A stretch of DNA of 64,000 bases from Nitrospirales bacterium (GTDB taxonomy: Bacteria; Nitrospirota; Nitrospiria; Nitrospirales; UBA8639). Shown piece by piece: positions 6,021 through 23,635 of this stretch (within the stretch, counting starts at the first letter, position 1; each line of letters starts with the position of its first letter). The notes beneath the pieces are model-generated. The model did not search any database. It had not been told where the DNA came from and was given only the letters and a program-made list of their open reading frames with translations. The position numbers were made by a program, and so were the translations under genes. Location of the stretch: NCBI GenBank assembly GCA_965223295.1, contig CBDCWC010000002.1, forward strand, positions 128,001 through 192,000. The letters run 5' to 3'.

Positions 6021-7166
6021 CTATTTGATGGCTGCGAGCATATCTTTCATCCGGGGTTCTTTTAATTTCTGCAAGGCCTTGGCTTCAATTTGCCTGACAC
6101 GTTCGCGGGTAACGGACATGCTTTGTCCCACTTCCTCAAGCGTCCAGGGTTCGTCTTGGCCAATTCCAAATCGAAGCCGAATGACCATCTGCTCCCTCGG
6201 AGTTAACGAGTCTAAAATGTGTGCAACCTGTTGATTGGTTTCTTGACGAGAAACTGGTCCATCGGGGGTGATGGTTGTTTGGTCAGGAATGAAGTCAGTG
6301 AGAAAGGTGTCGCCTTCTCCTATAGGGGTCTCCAAGGAGATCGGGTCCTGAAACGCTTGAATGGTTTCATGAACTTTCTCCCGGCTCAGGTCTAGCGCAT
6401 CACCAATATCCTCCATCTGTGCCGGACGAGCTAGACGTTGCGTTAAACGCTTGGAGGTTCTGGCAATTTTGTTGGAGATTTCGTTGAGATGGACGGGAAC
6501 CCGGATGGTCCGGGACTGATCTGCCAGCGCTCTGGTAATTCCTTGCCGTATCCACCACGTAGCGTAGGTGCTAAATTTAAACCCTTTTTTATATTGAAAG
6601 CGCTCTGCGGCTTTCATCAGCCCAATATTCCCCTCTTGTACGAGATCAAGAAACGCGAGTCCGTGACCTGTATACCGTTTGGCAATATCCACAACTAAGC
6701 GTAAATTTCGTTGAACCAGTTCGGATTTGGCTTTCTCTAATTGAAATTTAGCCTGATGCAATTGTTGGCAAAGTGACTGCGTGGTGTTGTGGTGCTCAGG
6801 AATGAACGTTCCCAGATCCATCAGCATGGCGCGTAATTTTTCAAGAGCTGGAGAAGAAAGTCCGGTTAAGGCGGCCGTTTCTTTAAGTACCTGGATGGCG
6901 TTCTCTTTCTCAGAACTCTTCTTCAGGCTGTGCGTGAGTTGAAGGCCTTGTTTAATGATGGCTCGAATAGCACGGGAGGCATCGTCAATTTCTTTCGCGA
7001 GCCCAAATTCTGAATCTTTATTCAAAAGCGGACGGCTGCCGAATGACCGGAAGTACAAGGATTCCAGAGCCGGACTATATCCCTTAACTTGAGATTTCGT
7101 TTCATGTGTTTTGGTCTCACCCCTCTCTGTGTCACTGGGATGTTCCAAGAGGCTTTGATGTTTCAT
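6021..7166 (-). CDS. RpoD/RpoS-family sigma70 factor lacking region 1.1 (group 2-like)
   Basis: NLRLVVDIAKRY, DLVQEGNIGLMKA, FSTYATWWIRQ, TLEEVG...TRERVRQIE. Confidence 0.92.
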   Translation of the reverse strand: MKHQSLLEHPSDTERGETKTHETKSQVKGYSPALESLYFRSFGSRPLLNKDSEFGLAKEIDDASRAIRAIIKQGLQLTHSLKKSSEKENAIQVLKETAALTGLSSPALEKLRAMLMDLGTFIPEHHNTTQSLCQQLHQAKFQLEKAKSELVQRNLRLVVDIAKRYTGHGLAFLDLVQEGNIGLMKAAERFQYKKGFKFSTYATWWIRQGITRALADQSRTIRVPVHLNEISNKIARTSKRLTQRLARPAQMEDIGDALDLSREKVHETIQAFQDPISLETPIGEGDTFLTDFIPDQTTITPDGPVSRQETNQQVAHILDSLTPREQMVIRLRFGIGQDEPWTLEEVGQSMSVTRERVRQIEAKALQKLKEPRMKDMLAAIK

Positions 7167-8527: not shown

Positions 8528-9427
8528 ATGAAATATTTCCAATCAGGGGAACGGATTCATCTCGTTGACAAGAAGGAGCGGCATTATGCCCTTACGTTAA
8601 AAGCCGGAGAAGTCTTTCAGCATAGTGGAGACCGTATTGCTCATGATGCCATTATCGGTCAACCTGATGGCACGGCTGTCGAGTTTTCTTCAAGCAAAGT
8701 CATGATCGCCATCTATCCAACCCTGGCCGAATATGCGGTAAAAATGCCAAGAGGGGCGCAGGTCATTTATCCAAAAGACCTCGCGATGATTCCGATGTGG
8801 GCCGATATTTATCCTGGTGCTAGAGTATTCGAATCGGGGGTAGGGTCGGGGGCACTTACTATGGCCCTGTTGCGAGCCGTGGGTGATCGAGGGTGTGTCG
8901 TCAGTTACGAAATACGAGAAGATTTTGCTGCCACAGCTACTAAAAATATTGAACGATTTATGGGAAAAACGCCTAATCATTTTTTGAAAGTTCGCGACGC
9001 CTATGAAGGCATTGAAATTGGCGAAGGCACGTCGGCTTGGTTTTTTGATCGAGTCGTTTTAGATATTCCTGAGCCATGGCAGGTTGTGCCTCATGCTGCC
9101 CGGGCTTTGCGGGCCGGCGGGATTTATCTGAGCTATGTGCCCACGATTCCACAAGTCATGCAAACTGTCCAAGCCATCGAAGAAAGCAGAGTGTTTACGT
9201 TCGTCAAGAATTTTGAGACTCTTCTCAGAACCTGGAATGTCAAAGGCCGTAGTGTGCGTCCCGATCATCGGATGGTGGCGCATTCAGGATTTATTACAGT
9301 CGCACGGAAAGTTGATACCCGTAAGTGGCAAGCTGGCGGGGTGGCTGAACAACATTCTCGAGAGAATTTCGATCATCAGTTCATCAAGGAGGATGAATGT
9401 CAAGAGCATGAATTAGAAACCCCCTGA
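8528..9427 (+). CDS. trmI: tRNA (adenine-58-N1)-methyltransferase
   Basis: MPRGAQVIYPKD, ESGVGSGALT, LDIPEPW, RPDHRMVAHSGF. Confidence 0.93.
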   Translation: MKYFQSGERIHLVDKKERHYALTLKAGEVFQHSGDRIAHDAIIGQPDGTAVEFSSSKVMIAIYPTLAEYAVKMPRGAQVIYPKDLAMIPMWADIYPGARVFESGVGSGALTMALLRAVGDRGCVVSYEIREDFAATATKNIERFMGKTPNHFLKVRDAYEGIEIGEGTSAWFFDRVVLDIPEPWQVVPHAARALRAGGIYLSYVPTIPQVMQTVQAIEESRVFTFVKNFETLLRTWNVKGRSVRPDHRMVAHSGFITVARKVDTRKWQAGGVAEQHSRENFDHQFIKEDECQEHELETP

Positions 9428-12918: not shown

Positions 12919-13083
12919 GGCCCATGTTTGAAATCGTCAATTTTGTTTTTGACTTACTGTCGAGCTTCTGTTCCTCCTATTTGTAAGAGGAGGATTAAAG
13001 TGGGTAGAGTCATGCTCATGTCCAGTGGTTGGTCTGGCTATCGTCAATGACATAAGTGGCGAAGTATTTTTGTCTTTGTGAGT

Positions 13084-13272
13084 TACCGAGTTCCGGCCTG
13101 ACAGTCGAGCCACTTTTGTTTCGGCAAAAGTGGCCAAAACTATTGACGCCCAGTCCGTCTACATTTGATTGGATGGACGCAAGGCATGGAAAGGTGGACC
13201 ATCTCGCTTTGCTCAGACAAGGTCCACCGATTGCTAGGAGCACCCATCCATGGGGACGGACTGCAGGCGTCG
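13084..13272 (+). repeat. Structured repeat family S, copy 2
   Basis: GCCACTTTTGT-TTCG-GCAAAAGTGGC hairpin, GGTGGACC/GGTCCACC and CAGTCCGTC/GACGGACTG stems. Confidence 0.75.
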
Positions 13273-13305
13273 GATGCTGGAAGGTTTAAATCTTTTGAGG
13301 CCATA

Positions 13306-13330
13306 TTCCCCGCTGCTTGCGGCGGGGATC
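13306..13330. repeat. REP-like palindrome
   Basis: TCCCCGCTGC-TT-GCGGCGGGGA hairpin; a related GCGGGGATG/CATCCCCGC hairpin lies at about 42073-42096. Confidence 0.45.
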
Positions 13331-13346
13331 ATTTATTGGCGTAACT

Positions 13347-13781
13347 CTAGGTTTTAATATTAACGTTTGCTGATTTTGCCAGAACGATAATCTCTGATCC
13401 AGATTGAAATAAGAATGAGCATTTCCAATTTACATCAGGTGTTTTATCAGTCCAAACCTGATTGACACACCAATCTTTATCTAAAAGTTACTCAAAACTG
13501 ATAAGACAATCATCTTCTGAAAACGGCATTGTAGGATTTCTTGGTTTTACTTCAAGATGATAGGCATCTGATATTCTTAACGAAATAAAGTGCGACAGAA
13601 AAAGGTTTACCCAATCTCCAGTTCCTCTTTGCCATTCGAGTGTAATTAACTTTTCCCTGATAGCGTAACTAAATTTATGGAAATCGTAATCATTGTGAAG
13701 ATCATATTCCTGTGAATCTTTTTTCAAATAAATGCTGTCAGGCCAAGAAAAGTTATTCGTAACCATCGTGGACTCCTTCAA
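13347..13781 (-). pseudogene. AT-rich hypothetical gene with internal stop
   Basis: TAA at 13488-13490; same frame stays open 46 more codons (LLDKDWC...FLFQSGSEIIVLAKSANVNIKT*) to TAG at 13347. Confidence 0.6.
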
Positions 13782-13976
13782 GAGTAGGCGATTAGGTGCA
13801 TGTTTTCTCTAGAATAAAGCGCTGTGGTTCAGCTCTATCCGTAATTTTCATTCGGCTTTTTGGGAAAGTTGTCCTCTGAAATGCTGAATTAGATCAATAG
13901 TCTATGATTTATGCTATTTGATTTTCGAAGTTAATAGCACGTCAAGACTCTTGATTTAACAACAGCCTCTTTCTTT

Positions 13977-14774
13977 CTATTTCATATTTCTGACTAATGG
14001 TGGTTTTACGGCTTTGGCGGCTAGGGCCATGGCGAGGGGGTGGGGGATGATCTTGCTGAACCAGTGGGCGAGGCGACCTTGCCAGCCTATGGTTACGACG
14101 GTGCGTTTGGATTGGAGAGCCTGCAGCGAGGTTTGGACAACTTGTTGCGGGGATTGTGCCGATAGGGCGTGATTGGGTTTGTGTCCGGCAGTTTGATGGA
14201 AATCCGTGTCGGTATAGCCAGGACAACAGACTTGTATGGTGATGCCTTGGTCCTGTGTTTCCCTTGCCAGCCCTTCTGAAAAAGTAATAAGAAAGGCTTT
14301 GGTGGCGGCGTATTCCGTCATATAGGGAATAGGGAAAAATCCGGCCACAGATGCGACGGTAATGATGGCGCCTTGTTTGCGATCCTGCATGGCCGGCAAA
14401 AATAGTCGAATGCTTTCTACGATCGTGTTGATATGCAATAGAAGCATATTTTGAATGCTTGCCATTGGCATATCGGCAAATTCCCCATAGCGTCCAAACC
14501 CCGCATTATTGATCAAAAGTGAAACCTCTGATCCATAAGACTGGGCCAGTGCATGCAATCTTTCTGCGGCTTGAGGTTGGCTCAGATCTAGTGATTCCAC
14601 CCAGATCGTACCGTGGGATAGAGCCTGCAGTTCCGTCTGCAATGTCTTGAGACGTACCTTATCTCGTCCAATAAGGAGGAGATCATAGTCTTGACTTGCG
14701 AGAGTTCTGGCATATTCCGCTCCAATCCCTCGAGAGGCGCCGGTAATGACTGCAAATGGTTGCATCTGATTCAT
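13977..14774 (-). CDS. Short-chain dehydrogenase/reductase (DltE-like)
   Basis: TGASRGIG, NNAGFG, YAATK. Confidence 0.92.
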   Translation of the reverse strand: MNQMQPFAVITGASRGIGAEYARTLASQDYDLLLIGRDKVRLKTLQTELQALSHGTIWVESLDLSQPQAAERLHALAQSYGSEVSLLINNAGFGRYGEFADMPMASIQNMLLLHINTIVESIRLFLPAMQDRKQGAIITVASVAGFFPIPYMTEYAATKAFLITFSEGLARETQDQGITIQVCCPGYTDTDFHQTAGHKPNHALSAQSPQQVVQTSLQALQSKRTVVTIGWQGRLAHWFSKIIPHPLAMALAAKAVKPPLVRNMK

Positions 14775-15040
14775 CTCCTTTCTTTCTCTCTCATGTCTCG
14801 CAGTATATCTGGTGAGCTTCTCTCAAGGTAGTTGTCGAGAACAAGGAGCACAAATTTTCCAAAAACAGCATGTATTTTTTGCACGGCCATGATGCAAATG
14901 GGCTGAAAATATTAAGAATTTATTAGTTTCTTCCGAATACTTCTCTCAGGTGCCAATCAGATGGATTCCCACTCAGGGGTGGGATCACGTGTGTGCGAGG
15001 AGAGTCTTCCCAAAAATGATGACAAAGGAATGTGAGTGCC

Positions 15041-15910
15041 ATGTCTGATTCATACGAGGTTGAATCGGCTACCAGTCTATTGGATTGTGCTGATCCCCAG
15101 ACTTCTCCGCCAGTTCCGTCCCAAACGGGAAGCCTGGAACAGGCCTTAGCCGATATTGAAGAACAAGCGGCCGAATTAGTGAAAACGACCAAGCAAGTGA
15201 TGGCGTCGTTTAAAAAAATAAAAGATGCGGCCAAAGTGGGCGATTTGGTGAAGCTTCGTAAACTACTGGAGGAAGGCAAGACGGCAACGTTGAATTTGGG
15301 CTGTGATTTCGTCAAAACGCAAGAACGTCTGAACTTTGATGAAGCCAGTTATTTGGCTGGAAAAGCCTTTCGTCAAGAACTCCTTTCTACCGCCCAACAA
15401 ATGGGGGTAAACCTTTATGAACATGATGAATTTTTGTTTTCGTATCCAGTTCTTTTGAAAATCCTGCATGAGGAGAGAGCTGTCTCCATTGATCGTATGC
15501 GCGAAAGCCGGTTGCGCCCATCCGTACTCGTGAAACGCCTCAAAGAAGTTCAAAATAAGCCGTTGCGCTTTAAGCCCAAGACGTTTTTAGAAATGCTCTA
15601 TACGGCCTATGCGATTGTCGTTGCGGGTCGTGGGAAACACTTAATTGGAAAGGGGACGGTGATTCCGCTCCTTGAACTCTATCAATTGTTAACGCTTTTG
15701 CCTTGGCAGGCCAGTGAATATACACGACAGGAGTTTGGACGTGATGTGTATTTACTCGATAAAAGTGGAACTATCGCGACGAAAAATCACTATCGGGCAA
15801 ACTTCCATGCCAGTACTGGGGTTCGGGATGTTTCAAAAACCTTAACGGTGATTGCGCAAGGTGGACGAGAAAAAACCTATTATGGGATTTCATTTGTGAA
15901 AGCAAGCTAA
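15041..15910 (+). CDS. Hypothetical protein; first gene of the double-BrxD locus
   Basis: About 289 aa; N-terminal coiled-coil-like stretch; co-oriented 82 bp before the ATPase genes. Confidence 0.8.
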   Translation: MSDSYEVESATSLLDCADPQTSPPVPSQTGSLEQALADIEEQAAELVKTTKQVMASFKKIKDAAKVGDLVKLRKLLEEGKTATLNLGCDFVKTQERLNFDEASYLAGKAFRQELLSTAQQMGVNLYEHDEFLFSYPVLLKILHEERAVSIDRMRESRLRPSVLVKRLKEVQNKPLRFKPKTFLEMLYTAYAIVVAGRGKHLIGKGTVIPLLELYQLLTLLPWQASEYTRQEFGRDVYLLDKSGTIATKNHYRANFHASTGVRDVSKTLTVIAQGGREKTYYGISFVKAS

Positions 15911-15992
15911 CGACGGTGAGCATGTTATTTAAGTTTCCCTAGGGAGAACCGACAAGAGGAAACAGCATAAAAGGATTATTGAGGAAAAATTT

Positions 15993-18269
15993 ATGGCACC
16001 ACAGGAATGGCTCAACGTTCTGAAAGTTGCATACCTTCAAGGGTTTATCCGTCGTGGGGGTTCGGCGGTGAAGTTTGCAGTTGTCGAGGAAGCTTCCGAC
16101 ACGAAGTCGGTAGTTTCTGGCATTGAGGAAATCGCCCGAGAGGAAGGCTTTCTCACACTGGCTGCCGATTCCCGTAAGACCAAGGTGCAGCTGATAGATC
16201 TCTTGTTTCAAGAAATGGCGAGACGGATTGATTGGGAGGGGCTGGCCTTCGAATTCATGAAAAAGCTGTTTCATGATCATGAATGTCAGATTCCTGAACA
16301 GCGGGAAGAATGTAGCTGGCAAAGTGTGGCGTCGCTCAATAATTCTGATGAGTCTACTTTGAAACGCGATGTGAACTCCTGGCTTGAACGTGCGTTGTTT
16401 CAAGATTTTCAGATGAGCCGGGAATTTCGTTTAGCGATGATCCAGTTTTGCCTGGCGCAGATTGATGAGGTTACACGACAATCAAAAGAAGCCAATGCCA
16501 TTCGATCATGGCTTTGTGGCGAGTTGAAACAAATGTCTGTTCTCAGGAAATTATTGATCTTCCAGAAAGTCAATCGCAGCACGGCTCGTGATTTGATTGC
16601 CTCGTTTACGCATTGGGTGCGTCTTATCGGCAAGCCAGGTGTGGTCTTAACTATTGATATTTCGGCTTTTATGGACTCAAAAAAGAAAGACACGAATTCG
16701 CTGAATTATACGCCGTCTGCCGTCATGGATGCTTATGAAATGTTACGGCAATTTATCGATGGCAGTGATGATATGGAAGGGCTGTTGCTCGTTGTCGTGA
16801 CCCCGAAGAAATTTTTAACTGACCAGCGGTTAGGCCTCAATCGTTATGAAGCGTTGAAGCTTCGGATATGGGACGATGTACGAGATAGGTTTCGGGCAAA
16901 CCCGTTTGCGCCAATGGTTCGGCTCTTTGAGCAGGCTGAACAGTTTGGAGACAGCTCCGCGTTAGGGCGTGTGGGTAGCCGACAGGATGATGTTCAGCAT
17001 CAACAGGTGATTGAGTCGCTGCGGGCTGGAGTGCCCAGTCCAGGGGCAGTGAAAGCCCTGGGCTGTTCTCAACCAACCGTCAAATCCAAATTTCAGCAAA
17101 TGCTGCAGGATGCGGAAGCCAGTATTCATAAGGGCTGGACGACGCAGGGTCTGCTCATTGAAGGGGGATTCGGGACAGGCAAGTCACATTTATTAGAATC
17201 GCTTCGGCATATGGCTCTCGACTCAAATTTCGTGTGCAGCAAAGTGGTGATTAGTAAAGAAACCCCGCTCTATAGCCCGGCGTTGATGTTTCGTGCGGCG
17301 ATGGGCGCAGCCAATATTCCCCAGAAACGAGGCGATGCTCTAGCCGAAGTAGCAGGTGATTTGAATTTCAAGAGCCCTCAATATGCGGAATTTTACGAAT
17401 GGGTCCATCGTCAAGGTGGAGAAATTGATGGGCGGTTTGCCGCCACGTTGTTTCTGTACGAACGAATGGTCAATGATCCTGAATTGAGTCATCGAATCCT
17501 TCGCTATTGGGCAGGTGACCCAATGACTGATGCCGAAATTAAACGGTATCTGAAATCCTGTGATCCCAATGTGTCGTATCGGTTTGAACGGGTCTCACCG
17601 ATGGAAATGGCCTTGCAGCGGTTTAAATTTGTCTCACGGTTGATGATAGCTGCGGGGTATTCCGGGTGGATTTTACTCATTGACGAAGCAGAAATCGTTG
17701 GCCGGTATTCCTTTAGGCAGCGGGCTCAATCCTACGCGGAGTTAGCACGATGGCTAGGACGTTTAGAAGCATCGAGTTTTGCTGATCTGGGTTATAAGTC
17801 GGGGTTAGCTGCTGTGATGGCGTTAACCGATGATTTCCAAAGCGCTATTTTGGATGAAAAAGGAGACCGCGAAAAAGTTCCGGAGAAGTTACGCGAAACC
17901 GGATCGGAAACGGATTTGGTGCTGGGTCGTCAAGCTGAACAAGGTATGCGATTGATCGAGTGCGAAAGGATTCCTTTGGTTGGTCCCTATGATCAGTTGG
18001 TAGAAGATATCTATCACAAAATTCGTGCAATTCATGGTGCGGCATATGGTTGGGAACCTCCACAAGTGCCAACAATTGAGCGGCTATCCAGCACACGAAT
18101 GCGTGAGTATGTGAAAGGGTGGATTACTGAGTGGGATTTGAAACGACTCGATCCGAATCAGAAAGTTGATATTGAATTGACGGAGATTAAACAGGATTAT
18201 TCAGAGGATATTGAATTAGAAGGTTTGCAGGAAGAAGTTCGGCAACCTGCTCTGACGGAGTTTCCGTAA
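15993..18269 (+). CDS. Tandem BrxD/DUF2791-like P-loop ATPase fusion, paralogue 1
   Basis: N module YLQGFIRRGGSAVKF without GxxGxGK; C module SLRAGVP, IEGGFGTGKSH, ISKETPL, LLIDEAE. Confidence 0.8.
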   Translation: MAPQEWLNVLKVAYLQGFIRRGGSAVKFAVVEEASDTKSVVSGIEEIAREEGFLTLAADSRKTKVQLIDLLFQEMARRIDWEGLAFEFMKKLFHDHECQIPEQREECSWQSVASLNNSDESTLKRDVNSWLERALFQDFQMSREFRLAMIQFCLAQIDEVTRQSKEANAIRSWLCGELKQMSVLRKLLIFQKVNRSTARDLIASFTHWVRLIGKPGVVLTIDISAFMDSKKKDTNSLNYTPSAVMDAYEMLRQFIDGSDDMEGLLLVVVTPKKFLTDQRLGLNRYEALKLRIWDDVRDRFRANPFAPMVRLFEQAEQFGDSSALGRVGSRQDDVQHQQVIESLRAGVPSPGAVKALGCSQPTVKSKFQQMLQDAEASIHKGWTTQGLLIEGGFGTGKSHLLESLRHMALDSNFVCSKVVISKETPLYSPALMFRAAMGAANIPQKRGDALAEVAGDLNFKSPQYAEFYEWVHRQGGEIDGRFAATLFLYERMVNDPELSHRILRYWAGDPMTDAEIKRYLKSCDPNVSYRFERVSPMEMALQRFKFVSRLMIAAGYSGWILLIDEAEIVGRYSFRQRAQSYAELARWLGRLEASSFADLGYKSGLAAVMALTDDFQSAILDEKGDREKVPEKLRETGSETDLVLGRQAEQGMRLIECERIPLVGPYDQLVEDIYHKIRAIHGAAYGWEPPQVPTIERLSSTRMREYVKGWITEWDLKRLDPNQKVDIELTEIKQDYSEDIELEGLQEEVRQPALTEFP

Positions 18270-18371
18270 TGGCTTCTTCGCGTAGGCTTGACTAGGCTTT
18301 ATGCCGATGGAAGCAGGTTCCAAACAGGCGTCAAATAGGCATTCCCCAACAACATGTAAAGGATAGGTGTT

Positions 18372-20696
18372 ATGGAGTTACAGCCTCAGGAATGGTTGCA
18401 GACGATTCGAGAAGAATATCTCCAACGATTTGTTGGACAGGGTGGTTCGTCCGTCAAATTTGTCGTCACGCCTTCTGATTCTGATCGAACTCAGGTTCAA
18501 GAACGCTTGGTCTCCCTGGCTGAAAGGGAACATTATGCCAGTGTGAGTGTTGATGCCAAGGAGACAAAAATTCATATGATGGATAAGTTCTTCCATCAAG
18601 TGGCGCGCCGGGTTCCGTGGGATGAGTTAGCGGCACAATTTGTCCGGCGGTTGCTTCAAGAAAATGGTTACCAGATTCCAGAAGGCAAAGAAGATTTCTG
18701 TATGGCCGGAGTGGCTCGGATGAATGAACGTGCCGAACCCCTGTTGCGGCGCGATTTGAATAGCTGGTTAGAACGAGCGATTTATCGTGATACTCATATG
18801 TGTCAAGAATTTCGGATGGCCATGATTCGCCTTTGCTTGGGACAATTAGATTCTGGGTCTGATAGTTCCTTTATGATTGAACCGATCAAAGCCTGGTTAT
18901 ATGGTGAGTTACGTCAAATTTCCGCAGTGAAAGAAGCCTTGATTTTTCAAAAAATTGTCAGAACCAATGCCCGGTACATGTTTGCATCCTTGTCCCGCTG
19001 GCTGCGTGTCGTTGGAAAAACTGGTCTCGTGGTGTCACTGGATTTAAGCCGATGCTTAGAAAGTAAAAAGCCCGAATCTCCAGAAGGCTTCTACTACGGA
19101 GTCTCCGCGACACTTGATGCCTACGAAATGTTGCGGCAGTTTATCGATGGGACAGATGATTTAGAGAGTCTCATGTTGGTGGTCTTTGTTCCTCCGTCAT
19201 TTTTAACAGATGCACGCCGTGGCCTGAATCGTTATGAGGCATTGAAGCTGAGGATCTGGGATGAAGTTCGTGACCGGCAATACCAAAATCCCTTAGGGGC
19301 ACTGATTCACTTGGGTGGTTTTGCCGATGATCAAGAAAACGTGACGGCCCATGAACTATACGAAGAACAGGCTGCCATGGCCAATGGGAATGTGAGCTAT
19401 CAACGCGCAATGGAAGCGTTACGTGCAGGAGTGCCCAATCGGGATGTTGTCAATATCTTGGGCAGTCACCAACCCGATCTAGAGGGGAAATTTCGGCGGT
19501 TGCTCCAAGAAATGGAAACCCAGGCTCCTCAAGGGATTCCTACCAAAGGATTGGTAATTGAAGGGGGGTTTGGAAGCGGAAAATCCCATCTGCTAAAAGC
19601 GTTACAGCATGTAGCGCTTGAGCAAAACTTTGTCTGTAGCCCAATTGTGATTAGTAAGGAAACACCCTTCTATAATGTCGCCACGCTGTTTCGCGCGGCT
19701 ATTACCGATGCGCTTGTTCCTGGTAAACAGGGAGATGCCTTAACCGAAATAGCGGGAGAGTTGAATTTTCAAAGTCCGCAGTATATCGACTTATTTGATT
19801 GGGCGCATCGAAAACAATCTGGCTGTGATTCCCGATTTGCCGCCACGCTCTATTTGTATGAACGGATGATGAATGATCCAGAGCTCAGCCACCGCATGAT
19901 CCGATTTTGGTCAGGAGATCCTTTGAGCAATGGGCAGCTCAAAAAGTATCTCCAGGGTTGTGCTCCTGAAGAAGAATATGTGTTTGAGAGAGTGTCGGCA
20001 CAGGAGTTGGCTTGGCATCGCTTCCAATTTGTCTCACGCCTGATGATCGCTGCGGGTTACAAGGGTTGGGTCTTGCTTATTGACGAAGCAGAAATTATTG
20101 GCCGTTATTCATTTAAACAACGCACCAAATCCTATGCAGAGGTGGCCCGTTGGATGGGGGTAATGGAAGAAACGGTGTGTCCTGGCATCATGAGTGTGGT
20201 GGCGTTAACCGATGATTTCCAAAGTGTGGTGATGGACGAAAAACAAGACACCAGGAAGATTGAGCAATTATGTCAGGATGGAGAGGCCGTCGGCGGTACC
20301 TATCTGGCGCATTCTGCCCTTCAAGGGATTCGTCTGATTGAGCAAGAGAGTGAGCCGCTTATTCGGCCTTATGAACCGATGGTCGATGCCTTATATGAGC
20401 AACTTCGAGGGCTCCATGGCTCTGCCTATAGCTGGAATCCTCCACCGGTTTCGGCTGTGGAAAAATTGTCCAGTACGCGAATGCGTGAATATGTCAGAGG
20501 CTGGATTACAGAATGGGATTTGCGTCGATTGTATCCCGAAGCTCAGCTCGATATTGAAATTTTAGATGTTTCCCAAACCTATGATGAGGATCAAGAGCTA
20601 GAATCCGCTATCACCGATGACGCAGATAATGTGCAGACCACTGAAGCACAAGAGGCTATGCTTGCCGTTGCCATGGAAAATCAAGCTCCTGTGTGA
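18372..20696 (+). CDS. Tandem BrxD/DUF2791-like P-loop ATPase fusion, paralogue 2
   Basis: Colinear with paralogue 1; GGSSVKF, ALRAGVP, IEGGFGSGKSH, LLIDEAE, acidic tail. Confidence 0.8.
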   Translation: MELQPQEWLQTIREEYLQRFVGQGGSSVKFVVTPSDSDRTQVQERLVSLAEREHYASVSVDAKETKIHMMDKFFHQVARRVPWDELAAQFVRRLLQENGYQIPEGKEDFCMAGVARMNERAEPLLRRDLNSWLERAIYRDTHMCQEFRMAMIRLCLGQLDSGSDSSFMIEPIKAWLYGELRQISAVKEALIFQKIVRTNARYMFASLSRWLRVVGKTGLVVSLDLSRCLESKKPESPEGFYYGVSATLDAYEMLRQFIDGTDDLESLMLVVFVPPSFLTDARRGLNRYEALKLRIWDEVRDRQYQNPLGALIHLGGFADDQENVTAHELYEEQAAMANGNVSYQRAMEALRAGVPNRDVVNILGSHQPDLEGKFRRLLQEMETQAPQGIPTKGLVIEGGFGSGKSHLLKALQHVALEQNFVCSPIVISKETPFYNVATLFRAAITDALVPGKQGDALTEIAGELNFQSPQYIDLFDWAHRKQSGCDSRFAATLYLYERMMNDPELSHRMIRFWSGDPLSNGQLKKYLQGCAPEEEYVFERVSAQELAWHRFQFVSRLMIAAGYKGWVLLIDEAEIIGRYSFKQRTKSYAEVARWMGVMEETVCPGIMSVVALTDDFQSVVMDEKQDTRKIEQLCQDGEAVGGTYLAHSALQGIRLIEQESEPLIRPYEPMVDALYEQLRGLHGSAYSWNPPPVSAVEKLSSTRMREYVRGWITEWDLRRLYPEAQLDIEILDVSQTYDEDQELESAITDDADNVQTTEAQEAMLAVAMENQAPV

Positions 20697-20818: not shown

Positions 20819-21118
20819 TTATGGCATCGTACTGCCAGGTGGGGGGCCTGATCTGAATGGCCGTTTCTCTTCCAGTGGTCGCGCTTCATTCACCACGAGA
20901 ATTCTCCCTCCTAGATCTGTTCCATTCAGAGCATTGATGGCTTCAGAGGCTTCTTCTTGACTGGACATTTCCACAAACCCAAATCCTCGTGACCGTCCTG
21001 TAAATCGATCGGCTATGACCTTGGCCGAGATCACGGTGCCTTGTGATGCGAAGTGATCGTGCAATTCCTGATCAGTGGTTGAAAAGGGGAGGTTTCCTAC
21101 ATAAAGTTTAGCGCCCAT
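20819..21118 (-). CDS. RRM (RNP-1) RNA-binding protein
   Basis: KLYVGNL (RNP2), RGFGFVEM (RNP1); GGAGG RBS. Confidence 0.95.
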   Translation of the reverse strand: MGAKLYVGNLPFSTTDQELHDHFASQGTVISAKVIADRFTGRSRGFGFVEMSSQEEASEAINALNGTDLGGRILVVNEARPLEEKRPFRSGPPPGSTMP

Positions 21119-21426: not shown

Positions 21427-23157
21427 GTGTCGGATGGGACGCTAAACAAAGAAGCACCCTTGCAGGCATATGGCATATGGAGCAAATTTGTAGAGAGCGT
21501 TTTAAGGGGATTGGAATTTCTTTATCAACAGACTATCCCGATATTAACCCTTCTTTTTGGTCTCTGTTTACTGGTGATCTATATTCATATTTCGCAGTTG
21601 AAAACACAAATGGTCGCAACTATTGCCCTCCGGGGTGCTGATACTCATTCCAGGGAATCAAGTGACATGCGTGAGTGGTATTCAATCGAAGCCGTTCAAC
21701 GGCTGCATGTCTTAGGCATTAAAGATTCAGAAGCGTACCGAGAAAAAGAAGGCGCTATTCCTTTGCCTGCGTTGTTAATCCGGAACTTGGGTGGCCAGAT
21801 GTTTTCTGGGAGGCCCGGGGAACGCGTCCGTTTAGTGAGCAAGCATCCGTTCCATCAAGTAGGAGATTCCGAGCAGGTGATGGATTCCTTTCAAGATAAG
21901 GCCTGGACATTTTTAAACCAACATCCTGAGCGGTCTTTTTATCGTGTCGAGCAAGTAGATGGACTTCAATCCCTGCGTTTTGCTACAGCCGCACGTATGC
22001 AGCAAGAGTGCGTCAATTGTCATAATGAGAACGCTGATAGTTTAAAACGTGATTGGCAAGTGGGACAGGTGGGGGGAATAGTAGAAGTCGTCTACCCATT
22101 AGATTCGTTAGAGAAAATCACGAGGATGGACTGGGTCGACTCTTATGGGATGATGGGAGTCTTGGTTCTGCTATGGCTAGGAGGGTTTGGATTAGTTGTG
22201 CTAAAGCTTCGTCGAGTATCCGAAGAGTTAGAAAATCAAGTACGGAATCGGACGTCCGACTTGAATGCCACAAATCGCCAGTTGGAATTGGAAATTTCTG
22301 AACGGCACATAGCGGAAGAGACGCTACGCCAGGCCAGAGATAACCTGGAAAAACGTGTGCAAGAACGAACGGCAAAATTAGCTGCCTCGAATGCCGAAAT
22401 GATCCGAGAAGTGGCCGAGCGGAAAAGGGCCGAAGAAGATATCCGTAAGCTGAATGCGACGCTTCTACAACGTTCTGCGCAATTGGAAGCCAGTAATAAG
22501 GAACTAGAGGCCTTTAGTTACTCCGTCTCTCATGATCTCCGAGCTCCGTTGCGGGGAATTGACGGATTCAGTCAAGCCGTCCTAGAAGACTATGAGGAAA
22601 AATTAGATGAGTCAGGGCGAAATTACTTGAAGCGGGTGCGTGCGGCGAGTCAGCGGATGTCGCAACTCATTGATGCCATGCTGAATTTAGCCCGTTTGAC
22701 TCGAGCGGAAATTCATACGAAAGCCTTTGATATGAGTGTGATCGTAGAGGGAATTTTAGATGATCTACAAAAGCAGGAGCCTGAACGAGAAGTGAAATGT
22801 GTTGTGGCCCGTCATGTATTCGCCACTGCAGATCCGCAACTCATTCGAGCGGTTTTGGAAAATCTCTTAGGTAATGCCTGGAAATTTACTCGACAGCAGC
22901 CCAAGCCTCGGATTGAATTCGGGCATGGTCAGTATAAGGGGCAGGCGGCGTATTTCGTGAAAGACAACGGTGCAGGCTTTGATATGACCTATGCCCACAA
23001 ACTGTTTGGCGCCTTTCAGCGACTGCATGCTTATACAGAGTATCCGGGGGTTGGCGTAGGGTTGGCCACGGTACATCGCATTGTCCAGCGCCATGGAGGA
23101 CAAATTTGGGCAGAGGGCGCAGTCGACAAGGGTGCCAGTTTTCATTTTACATTGTAA
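21427..23157 (+). CDS. Membrane histidine kinase with a periplasmic heme-c (Tll0287/DUF3365-like) domain
   Basis: Two TM segments, CVNCH, SHDLRAPL H-box, NAWKF, DNGAG, GVGVGL. Confidence 0.88.
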   Translation: MSDGTLNKEAPLQAYGIWSKFVESVLRGLEFLYQQTIPILTLLFGLCLLVIYIHISQLKTQMVATIALRGADTHSRESSDMREWYSIEAVQRLHVLGIKDSEAYREKEGAIPLPALLIRNLGGQMFSGRPGERVRLVSKHPFHQVGDSEQVMDSFQDKAWTFLNQHPERSFYRVEQVDGLQSLRFATAARMQQECVNCHNENADSLKRDWQVGQVGGIVEVVYPLDSLEKITRMDWVDSYGMMGVLVLLWLGGFGLVVLKLRRVSEELENQVRNRTSDLNATNRQLELEISERHIAEETLRQARDNLEKRVQERTAKLAASNAEMIREVAERKRAEEDIRKLNATLLQRSAQLEASNKELEAFSYSVSHDLRAPLRGIDGFSQAVLEDYEEKLDESGRNYLKRVRAASQRMSQLIDAMLNLARLTRAEIHTKAFDMSVIVEGILDDLQKQEPEREVKCVVARHVFATADPQLIRAVLENLLGNAWKFTRQQPKPRIEFGHGQYKGQAAYFVKDNGAGFDMTYAHKLFGAFQRLHAYTEYPGVGVGLATVHRIVQRHGGQIWAEGAVDKGASFHFTL

Positions 23158-23185: not shown

Positions 23186-23635
23186 ATGACAAACAAACAC
23201 ATTCTTCTAGTTGAAGATCATCCCGATGATGAAGAGCTGACCATGCGTGCGTTAAAGAAAAACAATATTATGAATGAAGTGGTTGTTGCTCGTGACGGAG
23301 TAGAAGCTTTGGAGTATCTATTCGGGACCGGGGCTCATGCTGGAAGAGATATGAATATTATGCCACAGATCATCTTGTTGGACTTGAAATTGCCTAAAAT
23401 TGATGGCTTGGAGGTCTTGCGACGGTTGCGCGCGGATGATCGCACAAAATTTTTGCCAGTCGTTGTGCTCACGTCCTCCAAAGAGGAACAAGATATTGTG
23501 AAAAGCTATCAATTAGGTGCCAATAGCTATGTGCGCAAGCCGGTAGATTTCCAAGAATTTTCTCAAGCGGTTCAGAACTTAGGACTGTATTGGCTTATAT
23601 TGAATGAGTCAGCGCCCGAGCGAGTTCCGGTTTAA
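23186..23635 (+). CDS. Rcp1-like single-domain response regulator
   Basis: [23 protein letters not shown]. Confidence 0.92.

Follow-up and report, generated by a model that had tools for sequence, protein, structure and literature searches.

The window analysed here is a stretch of 64,000 nucleotides from a Nitrospirales bacterium (assembly GCA_965223295.1, contig CBDCWC010000002.1, positions 128,001 to 192,000). It carries a locus of three open reading frames (ORFs) on one strand, gene A followed by gene B and gene C, which, judged by sequence comparison, is a derived form of a gene cassette: two BrxD-like ATPase modules are fused, the fused gene is duplicated in tandem and a helicase-nuclease gene is absent. 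ATP hydrolysis seems possible in only two of the four modules of the locus. The fused form keeps its gene order, occurs almost throughout its Nitrospirales genus and is subject to purifying selection. On balance, we lean towards the view that the core of the cassette has been retained as a DNA-bound, ATP-driven complex that serves the host. What computation has shown is structural and evolutionary: the gene structure, the identity of the modules, the loss of motifs, the kinship with unfused cassettes, the grouping of the fused forms in one clade, the conserved gene order and the purifying selection. This part of the reading stands on much firmer ground than the functional one.

The three genes, with intergenic gaps of 82 and 102 bp, are:
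15041..15910, plus strand: gene A, 289 amino acids (aa), member of a family without a database model
15993..18269, plus strand: gene B, 758 aa, inactive BrxD-like N-terminal module (N-module, aa 1-~311) fused to an active BrxD-like C-terminal module (C-module, aa ~336-745)
18372..20696, plus strand: gene C, 774 aa, paralogue of B (50% identity) with the same order of inactive and active module

An earlier note, made from the sequence alone, had given the lengths of the three ORFs, the gaps and the genes bounding the locus on the opposite strand (SDR and RRM), all of which proved accurate. The ATG of gene A at 15041 lies 11 nt past an AAGGA motif, whereas an in-frame GTG at 15032 is without usable Shine-Dalgarno spacing. 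The ATG was preferred because of this spacing and because the homologues in the databases are likewise 289 aa long.

Proteins B and C are colinear paralogues, as had been noticed before, with 371 of 748 residues identical from end to end. Both match the Pfam family BrxC_BrxD (PF10923, formerly DUF2791; B 112.4 bits, E-value 3e-32; C 111.8 bits, E-value 5e-32; gathering threshold 22.2 bits), in three stretches each that span both halves of the protein. The PADLOC models of BrxD and SngB match B and C as well, the BrxD model with the higher score (SngB model PDLC03959, E-value 5.2e-17 for B and 9.9e-14 for C), which bears out the proposed kinship of the halves with DUF2791/BrxD. The NCBIfam equivalog model of BrxD (NF033438) gives 78.9 bits for B and 99.6 bits for C, compared with a curated cut-off of 350; because the scores are far under this value, both proteins are to be regarded as members of the superfamily and not as BrxD proper. 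At NCBI, the fused proteins are named "DUF2791 family P-loop domain-containing protein" or "BREX system ATP-binding domain-containing protein".

The nucleotide-binding sites of the four modules are:
16050..16076, plus strand: degenerate site RRGGSAVKF in the N-module of B, without GK[ST], roughly at the P-loop position of the BrxD profile as inferred from the profile coordinates
17163..17189, plus strand: Walker A GGFGTGKSH in the C-module of B (aa 391-399), G391, G394, G396 and K397 invariant in 22 sequences
17673..17693, plus strand: Walker B LLIDEAE in the C-module of B (aa 561-567), D564 and E567 invariant
18435..18461, plus strand: degenerate site GQGGSSVKF in the N-module of C (aa 22-30)
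19563..19589, plus strand: Walker A GGFGSGKSH in the C-module of C (aa 398-406)
20073..20093, plus strand: Walker B LLIDEAE in the C-module of C (aa 568-574)

At the Walker B position, the N-modules carry LTIDIS and VSLDLS instead of hhhDE. The motif pair of an active ATPase (Walker A GxxxxGK[ST] and Walker B hhhhDE) was found in the C-modules only, and across the family GxxxxGK[ST] is present in none of 116 N-modules compared with 112 of 114 C-modules. Since the N-modules are without a P-loop motif, two of the four modules appear to be ATPase-competent, and the Walker A counts argue for reading B and C each as a pair of a dead and a live module and not as a duplicated BrxD. Of the four P-loop-type modules counted in the earlier note, all four are BrxD-like by profile, but the P-loop is confined to the two C-modules. 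The term "double BrxD" does not fit either, because each chain is a fusion of two long-diverged genes, one Walker A-less and one active, which are separate elsewhere. A direct profile-profile comparison of N- and C-modules gave a weak match (probability 19%, E-value 0.0013), in which the LDIS of the N-module aligns to the Walker B motif of the C-module; the kinship of the two modules therefore rests on their separate matches to the BrxD profile. Sequence profile searches against the PDB yielded weak P-loop or coiled-coil matches, none of them significant, and the solved structures matched weakly in the P-loop region include the helicase loaders DnaI and DnaC.

Relatives of gene A were found by profile in 238 species genomes, and the best 80 loci (L020-L099) were inspected. 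Judging by the names that homologues carry, the source organism is one of the marine Nitrospirales. In all of these that are long enough, except L068, the A homologue is located directly upstream of ATPase modules, which supports the conservation of the triad of A and ATPases proposed earlier. In the 46 Nitrospirales loci L020-L065, gene A is followed by two fused genes in 42 cases (the second gene is cut by the contig end in two of them and split into two ORFs in another two), and the other four end too early. Gene A and one fused gene are found in L066, L067 and L069; in L068, gene A is present and no ATPase module was detected. The remaining 30 loci (L070-L099) belong to Thermodesulfobacteriota, Chloroflexota, Bacillota, Gemmatimonadota, Binatia, Nitrospinota, Thermodesulfovibrionia and one Nitrospirales metagenome-assembled genome. 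Here, 25 loci show a gene A of ~265 aa followed by tightly packed separate genes for the N-module (~320-340 aa) and the C-module (~415-455 aa), while five are cut by the contig end. These are unfused versions, for which a neighbourhood survey had been suggested earlier. The stand-alone N and C genes of L070 each match PF10923 and the PADLOC BrxD model.

Two further genes accompany the unfused modules. A gene encoding a protein of ~190 aa is present in 21 of the 30 loci; its product had no Pfam match at E<=0.1 (three of three tested) and no PADLOC match. Downstream, 20 of the 25 loci with both N and C genes possess a gene encoding SNF2-rel_dom, Helicase_C and Mrr_cat domains (SNF2-Mrr), with ZorD and DpdE as top PADLOC matches. 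Three of the remaining five are cut by the contig end and two (L073 and L079) are without it. On this gene content, the parent cassette comprises A, a dead BrxD-like protein, a live BrxD-like protein, the ~190-aa protein and SNF2-Mrr, and it appears to have been widely transferred. No name for this five-gene cassette was found in PADLOC 2.0.0 and the literature searched; later DefenseFinder or PADLOC releases or supplements could hold one. The fused form was not described in the literature searched either and matches no PADLOC 2.0.0 system, in agreement with the earlier suggestion of a possibly undescribed machine.

The window is read as holding the derived form because the modules are separate genes after an A homologue in other phyla, usually with the ~190-aa and SNF2-Mrr genes, and the direction from cassette to fusion was chosen because the unfused form is far more widely distributed. 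A quick, unrooted IQ-TREE tree was calculated from 37 C-modules, namely those of the three paralogues of the genome and all C-modules of L062-L099; the near-identical orthologues of L020-L061 were omitted. All 12 fused forms are located on one side of a branch with a Shimodaira-Hasegawa-like approximate likelihood ratio test (SH-aLRT) value of 100, and phyla are mixed among the unfused forms. The clade of B is sister to that of C (92), both of them including orthologues from L063, L064 and L065, and the single-fusion genes group in a clade of their own. The branch of the third paralogue is long (0.99), with its basal placement not resolved. A sister genus of the same family has a divergent unfused triad of A, N and C genes without an SNF2-Mrr gene (L108:7557-14742, genome G074), the A protein of which is 32-37% identical. 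Adjoining this triad are divergently oriented ORFs with Helicase_C plus DSHCT and DEAD domains (Ski2-like pieces in an odd order) as well as a DUF4143 AAA gene.

The third paralogue is located outside the window:
G000:C2:107160-109739 (L019:7160-9739): third fused dead/live paralogue, 859 aa, 36 kb upstream of gene A

It is 46% identical to C and matches PF10923 with 112 bits. Its neighbours are unlike those of the main locus and encode a 246-aa protein (weak Trans_reg_dom match), a hydrophobic 431-aa protein and a receiver domain; the 246-aa gene was found in five of five and the 431-aa gene in four of five genus loci. The 246-aa gene was considered as a relative of gene A and the 431-aa gene as a relative of the kinase described below. 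Both candidates were rejected, the former as unrelated on comparison and the latter as hydrophobic and unrelated. About 4 kb upstream of the third paralogue, a 225-aa ORF without a Pfam family (L019:2700-3377) matches the PADLOC candidate family PDC-S11 over the first half of the model (E-value 2e-47).

With a single sequence as query, gene A was detected in 22 of 24 same-genus genomes and in none of the 16 that represent three further families of the order; the profile detected it in 46 of 49 other genomes of the genus, in nine of 13 genera of the family and in 68 of 115 genomes in all. Among 24 genus genomes, places matching the fused gene, which are matches and not strict copy numbers, amounted to three in 18 genomes, four in two, two in three and none in one. 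The genes flanking the locus are:
13977-14774, minus strand: SDR gene, upstream flank
20819-21118, minus strand: RRM gene, downstream flank, separating gene C from the kinase gene
21427..23157, plus strand: histidine kinase gene (Tll0287-like sensor, HisKA, HATPase_c)
23186..23635, plus strand: receiver-only response regulator gene, following the kinase gene

The order of a 285-aa gene, SDR (minus strand), A, fused gene(s), RRM (not in every locus), kinase and regulator is kept in all Nitrospirales-type loci that are long enough, including the distant L067-L069. Regulators from loci with two fused genes are 93-99% identical (L064: 88%) and the more distant ones 81-88% (L067: 81%), and the kinase shares 57% identity with the L067 kinase over 355 aligned residues. 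Every recognisable gene farther out has a housekeeping or signalling function; the wider window encodes a tRNA methyltransferase, an HD phosphohydrolase, a rhodanese, a phosphoribosyltransferase, a cytochrome c peroxidase, DapF, BipA, a sigma-70 factor and LpxC. No nuclease, methylase or mobile-element domain was detected in the 15 flanking ORFs between 8.5 and 30 kb. The earlier description of the locus as stand-alone and nuclease-free is correct in this respect, but the state is a derived one, given the SNF2-Mrr gene downstream of most unfused relatives. The base composition around the locus is without an island-like break. Between the 285-aa gene and SDR, the G+C content falls to about 0.41 over ~1 kb that contains short ORFs only (12919-13976). 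Promoter-like and terminator-like sites between 14700 and 21500 were no more frequent than in shuffled sequences, or fewer, and an operon structure is therefore unsupported. Two genes of the window match PADLOC models singly, the sigma-70 factor (6021-7166; MzaA, E-value 1e-57) and the TrmI-type tRNA methyltransferase (8528-9427; mad2, E-value 2e-22), from which it follows that lone PADLOC matches on housekeeping genes are common.

Ratios of nonsynonymous to synonymous substitutions (dN/dS; pairwise Nei-Gojobori, pairs with unsaturated dS) were roughly 0.033-0.044 for A, 0.043-0.047 for B and 0.044-0.061 for C, compared with 0.09-0.13 for SDR and 0.002-0.010 for the regulator. In the genome, which is 100% complete, neither Mrr_cat nor PglZ (PF08665) gave a match, and the ~190-aa protein was not found with the one query used. 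The only related SNF2 protein of the genome (1175 aa, no nuclease domain) is encoded among methionine-biosynthesis genes on another contig. A single TerB-domain gene is present, which is located on contig C3 and not on the contig of the locus.

Gene A has no match in the Pfam, NCBIfam or PADLOC models, and all of its 158 database homologues are labelled "hypothetical". With its profile, 907 representatives of clusters at 50% identity were retrieved at E<=0.001, of which 662 remained at E<=1e-10 and 271 at E<=1e-30; this is a sizeable family for which no database model exists. The structure was predicted with AlphaFold2 from a 43-row alignment, with a mean predicted local distance difference test (pLDDT) value of 86.8 for the whole protein and of 91.0 for aa 98-289 modelled alone. 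According to this model, a disordered N-terminus would be followed by a long helical hairpin (aa 32-96), an alpha/beta domain (aa ~98-175) and a winged-helix-like domain (aa ~176-289). The alpha/beta domain resembles frataxin-like or secretion-chaperone-like folds (Z 5.0-5.8). For the C-terminal domain, most of the 50 matches listed are winged helices (Z 4.9-6.1, root-mean-square deviation ~3-4 Å), with those of Polycomblike, condensin kleisin, ORC/Cdc6, RPC62 and ESCRT-II at the top. Foldseek found nothing at E<=0.001 in the PDB, either with the whole of A or with its C-terminal part; VIA-align with the whole model returned helical-hairpin look-alikes only, and an ESM Atlas search returned only unnamed "hypothetical protein" clusters. 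A joint model of B (aa 1-735) and A (aa 30-289), run without controls, scored 0.00, which speaks neither for nor against a complex.

These data can be combined in the following scenario. In one Nitrospirales lineage, the genes of the dead and the live ATPase would have been fused, with the ~190-aa and helicase-nuclease genes absent, and the fused gene would then have been duplicated in tandem to give B and C, a third copy being located 36 kb upstream. The fused chains may assemble as a hetero-oligomer of the ORC/Cdc6 type of AAA+ ATPases, in which every second module (the C-modules) would hydrolyse ATP. The A protein may dimerise via its helical hairpin, and its putative winged helix could anchor the complex on DNA or bind to the ATPases. 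In the cassette from which the locus derives, A would bring a dead/live hetero-oligomer to DNA, and this would load the SNF2-Mrr motor-nuclease onto its target or license it there. In the window, where the nuclease is lacking, the complex may survive as a core function of the chromosome, bound to DNA as an ATP-dependent sensor or remodeller in the service of the host and not of restriction.

Several points weigh against this scenario. We infer that an oligomer forms, that DNA is bound and that a helicase is loaded, and likewise what the complex does in the cell at present; the literature searched offers no experiment with any of the family's members. The winged-helix matches are of medium strength, and because their Z-scores are below the level of 8 up to which the tool advises caution, the assignment is to be taken as a lead and not as a result. 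The dN/dS values are rough because dS, at 1.3-2.9, is close to saturation. The direction from cassette to fusion is based on breadth of distribution and an unrooted tree, and the nuclease-less triad of the sister genus suggests that the absence of the nuclease may have come before the fusion. Moreover, a core and conserved location is compatible with an immune role. A more specific version of the scenario appears quite unlikely as a whole. In this version, a mobile defence-type cassette would have been exapted, with the three dead/live chains and the winged-helix adaptor forming a six-module AAA+ ring of alternating active and inactive sites that has a core non-restriction role and possibly feeds the two-component system. 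If it were true, the locus would be a clear case of bacterial immune machinery exapted to housekeeping.

The strongest alternative, which we regard as unlikely, is a self-contained defence against phages or plasmids with the ATPase complex or an unlinked host factor as effector, for example by abortive ATP-driven clamping of DNA. BrxD and SngB belong to experimentally shown defence systems, and the relatives of the locus occur in cassettes with a ZorD-like SNF2-Mrr nuclease, scattered over phyla against taxonomy. Some of them are located beside clear defence genes, such as matches to DpdF-like, RmrA, PDC-S05 and mad3. In two Bacillota loci (L082:3-7904 and L084:1-7904), a set of DUF499, DUF3780, DUF1156-methylase and SNF2 genes directly abuts the cassette upstream of gene A, so that two helicase-based systems stand back to back. 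The DUF499-DUF3780-DUF1156 methylase set matches PADLOC with an E-value of 1e-280, and the arrangement resembles a layout named "type-2 BREX-related" in PMC12839542. In the Binatia locus L089, a 1137-aa gene encoding a zinc ribbon, a nucleotide cyclase (Pycsar-like in PADLOC), a STAND ATPase and TPR (L089:11055-14468) is inserted between the live ATPase gene and the ~190-aa and SNF2 genes. However, PADLOC matches (E<=1e-10) were obtained for 20 of 141 ORFs flanking the unfused loci compared with two of 16, both false positives, in the housekeeping flanks of the window. Because these rates are similar, enrichment of the unfused cassettes in defence islands, for which a survey had been proposed, is not established. 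In the window itself, no nuclease or other recognisable effector was recognised. The defence setting considered in the earlier note was not recovered there: the locus does not look island-like, its neighbourhood is fixed and of housekeeping type, and near-universal presence in the genus together with strong purifying selection on A, B and C (dN/dS 0.033-0.061) is unlike the patchy distribution and fast evolution typical of defence genes.

It is decidedly improbable that the ATPase complex is the input or output module of the adjacent two-component system (21427-23157 and 23186-23635). In every Nitrospirales-type locus that is long enough, kinase and regulator come after the fused gene(s), directly so in L066, L067 and L069; the regulator is unusually conserved, and a receiver-domain gene is located near the third paralogue, too. 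On the other hand, the upstream SDR and 285-aa genes are equally syntenic, so that the adjacency may be merely inherited gene order. In addition, the RRM gene on the opposite strand intervenes in the window, L068 possesses A, kinase and regulator with no fused gene detected, and the pairing was seen in no unfused cassette.

A very improbable origin, largely refuted by the data, is that B and C are orphan parts of a canonical BREX system (type 2 or 6) or of Shango with partners elsewhere in the genome. The best profile matches are indeed BrxD and SngB, and a TerB-domain gene exists, but the equivalog scores are far too low, the genome yielded no PglZ match and carries its TerB gene on another contig than the locus, and the partner conserved across the 238 species genomes is gene A and not a BREX or Shango gene. 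A decaying, functionless relic of a lost cassette, which the missing effector genes might suggest, is hardly credible and is contradicted by the conservation data, since the frames were counted as intact in 42 of 46 loci (including the two contig-end-cut and two split cases), the ATPase motifs are invariant, dN/dS is well below 0.1 and three paralogues are kept across the genus.

BrxD-type ATPases recur beside helicases, yet no biochemistry on them was found in the literature searched. The locus offers a natural single-chain dead/live ATPase core without an effector, the degree of conservation of which suggests a role in its own right. It is therefore a handy entry point both to the mechanism of BrxD-type ATPases and to the question of whether defence modules become housekeeping genes.

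In comparison with known systems, the locus belongs by its profile matches to PF10923 and is neither BrxD proper nor BREX nor Shango. BrxD is an accessory ATPase of type 2 (Pgl) and type 6 BREX, where its partners are PglZ, PglX, BrxC and BrxHI. B and C share the Pfam family with BrxD, and the ATPase of the parent cassette is likewise paired with a superfamily 2 (SF2) helicase. They differ from it in scoring far below the equivalog cut-off and in the fusion of a dead and a live module, and the helicase of the cassette is of the SNF2 type, outside the clade of BrxHI and SngC. None of the type 2/6 partners was found in the 15 flanking ORFs or in the 16 flank ORFs of the window scanned with PADLOC, as had been stated earlier for adjacent BREX and Shango partners; the genome-wide search covered PglZ and not PglX, BrxC or BrxHI. 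In PMC12839542, BrxD is described as an ORC/Cdc6-type AAA+ ATPase that has an arginine finger and itself lacks a DNA-binding domain. According to the same paper, its gene is linked in genomes to that of the helicase BrxHI, and the authors propose that BrxD loads or activates this helicase. According to PMC12278908, BrxHI and Shango SngC form one helicase clade.

With Shango, the locus shares the match of B and C to the SngB model and a layout of three genes with a small non-enzymatic gene in first position. Shango consists of the TerB protein SngA, the ATPase SngB and the helicase SngC, an association of TerB, DUF2791 and helicase. In contrast, gene A has no TerB domain, the flanks contain no helicase, and the sole TerB gene is located on another contig. 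Initiator and loader assemblies of the ORC/Cdc6/DnaC type mix active and inactive AAA+ subunits and use winged helices. The likeness to these machines would lie in an AAA+ module with an inactive partner and a predicted winged-helix-like component, ORC and Cdc6 winged helices being among the fold matches of A. The locus differs in that no sequence match to a solved structure is significant, the winged helix is placed on a separate protein and no replicative helicase is linked.

The closest relative is the five-gene cassette, the A protein of which is homologous to that of the window (43-52% identity) and which contains homologous N- and C-modules in the same order, the N-module being without Walker A in both. 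In the window, N- and C-modules are joined in one chain, the genome has three fused genes, the ~190-aa and SNF2-Mrr genes are lacking at the locus, and the locus is vertically inherited in a housekeeping context. A BrxD-type ATPase beside an SF2 helicase is a recurring theme of BREX type 2, Shango and the five-gene cassette.

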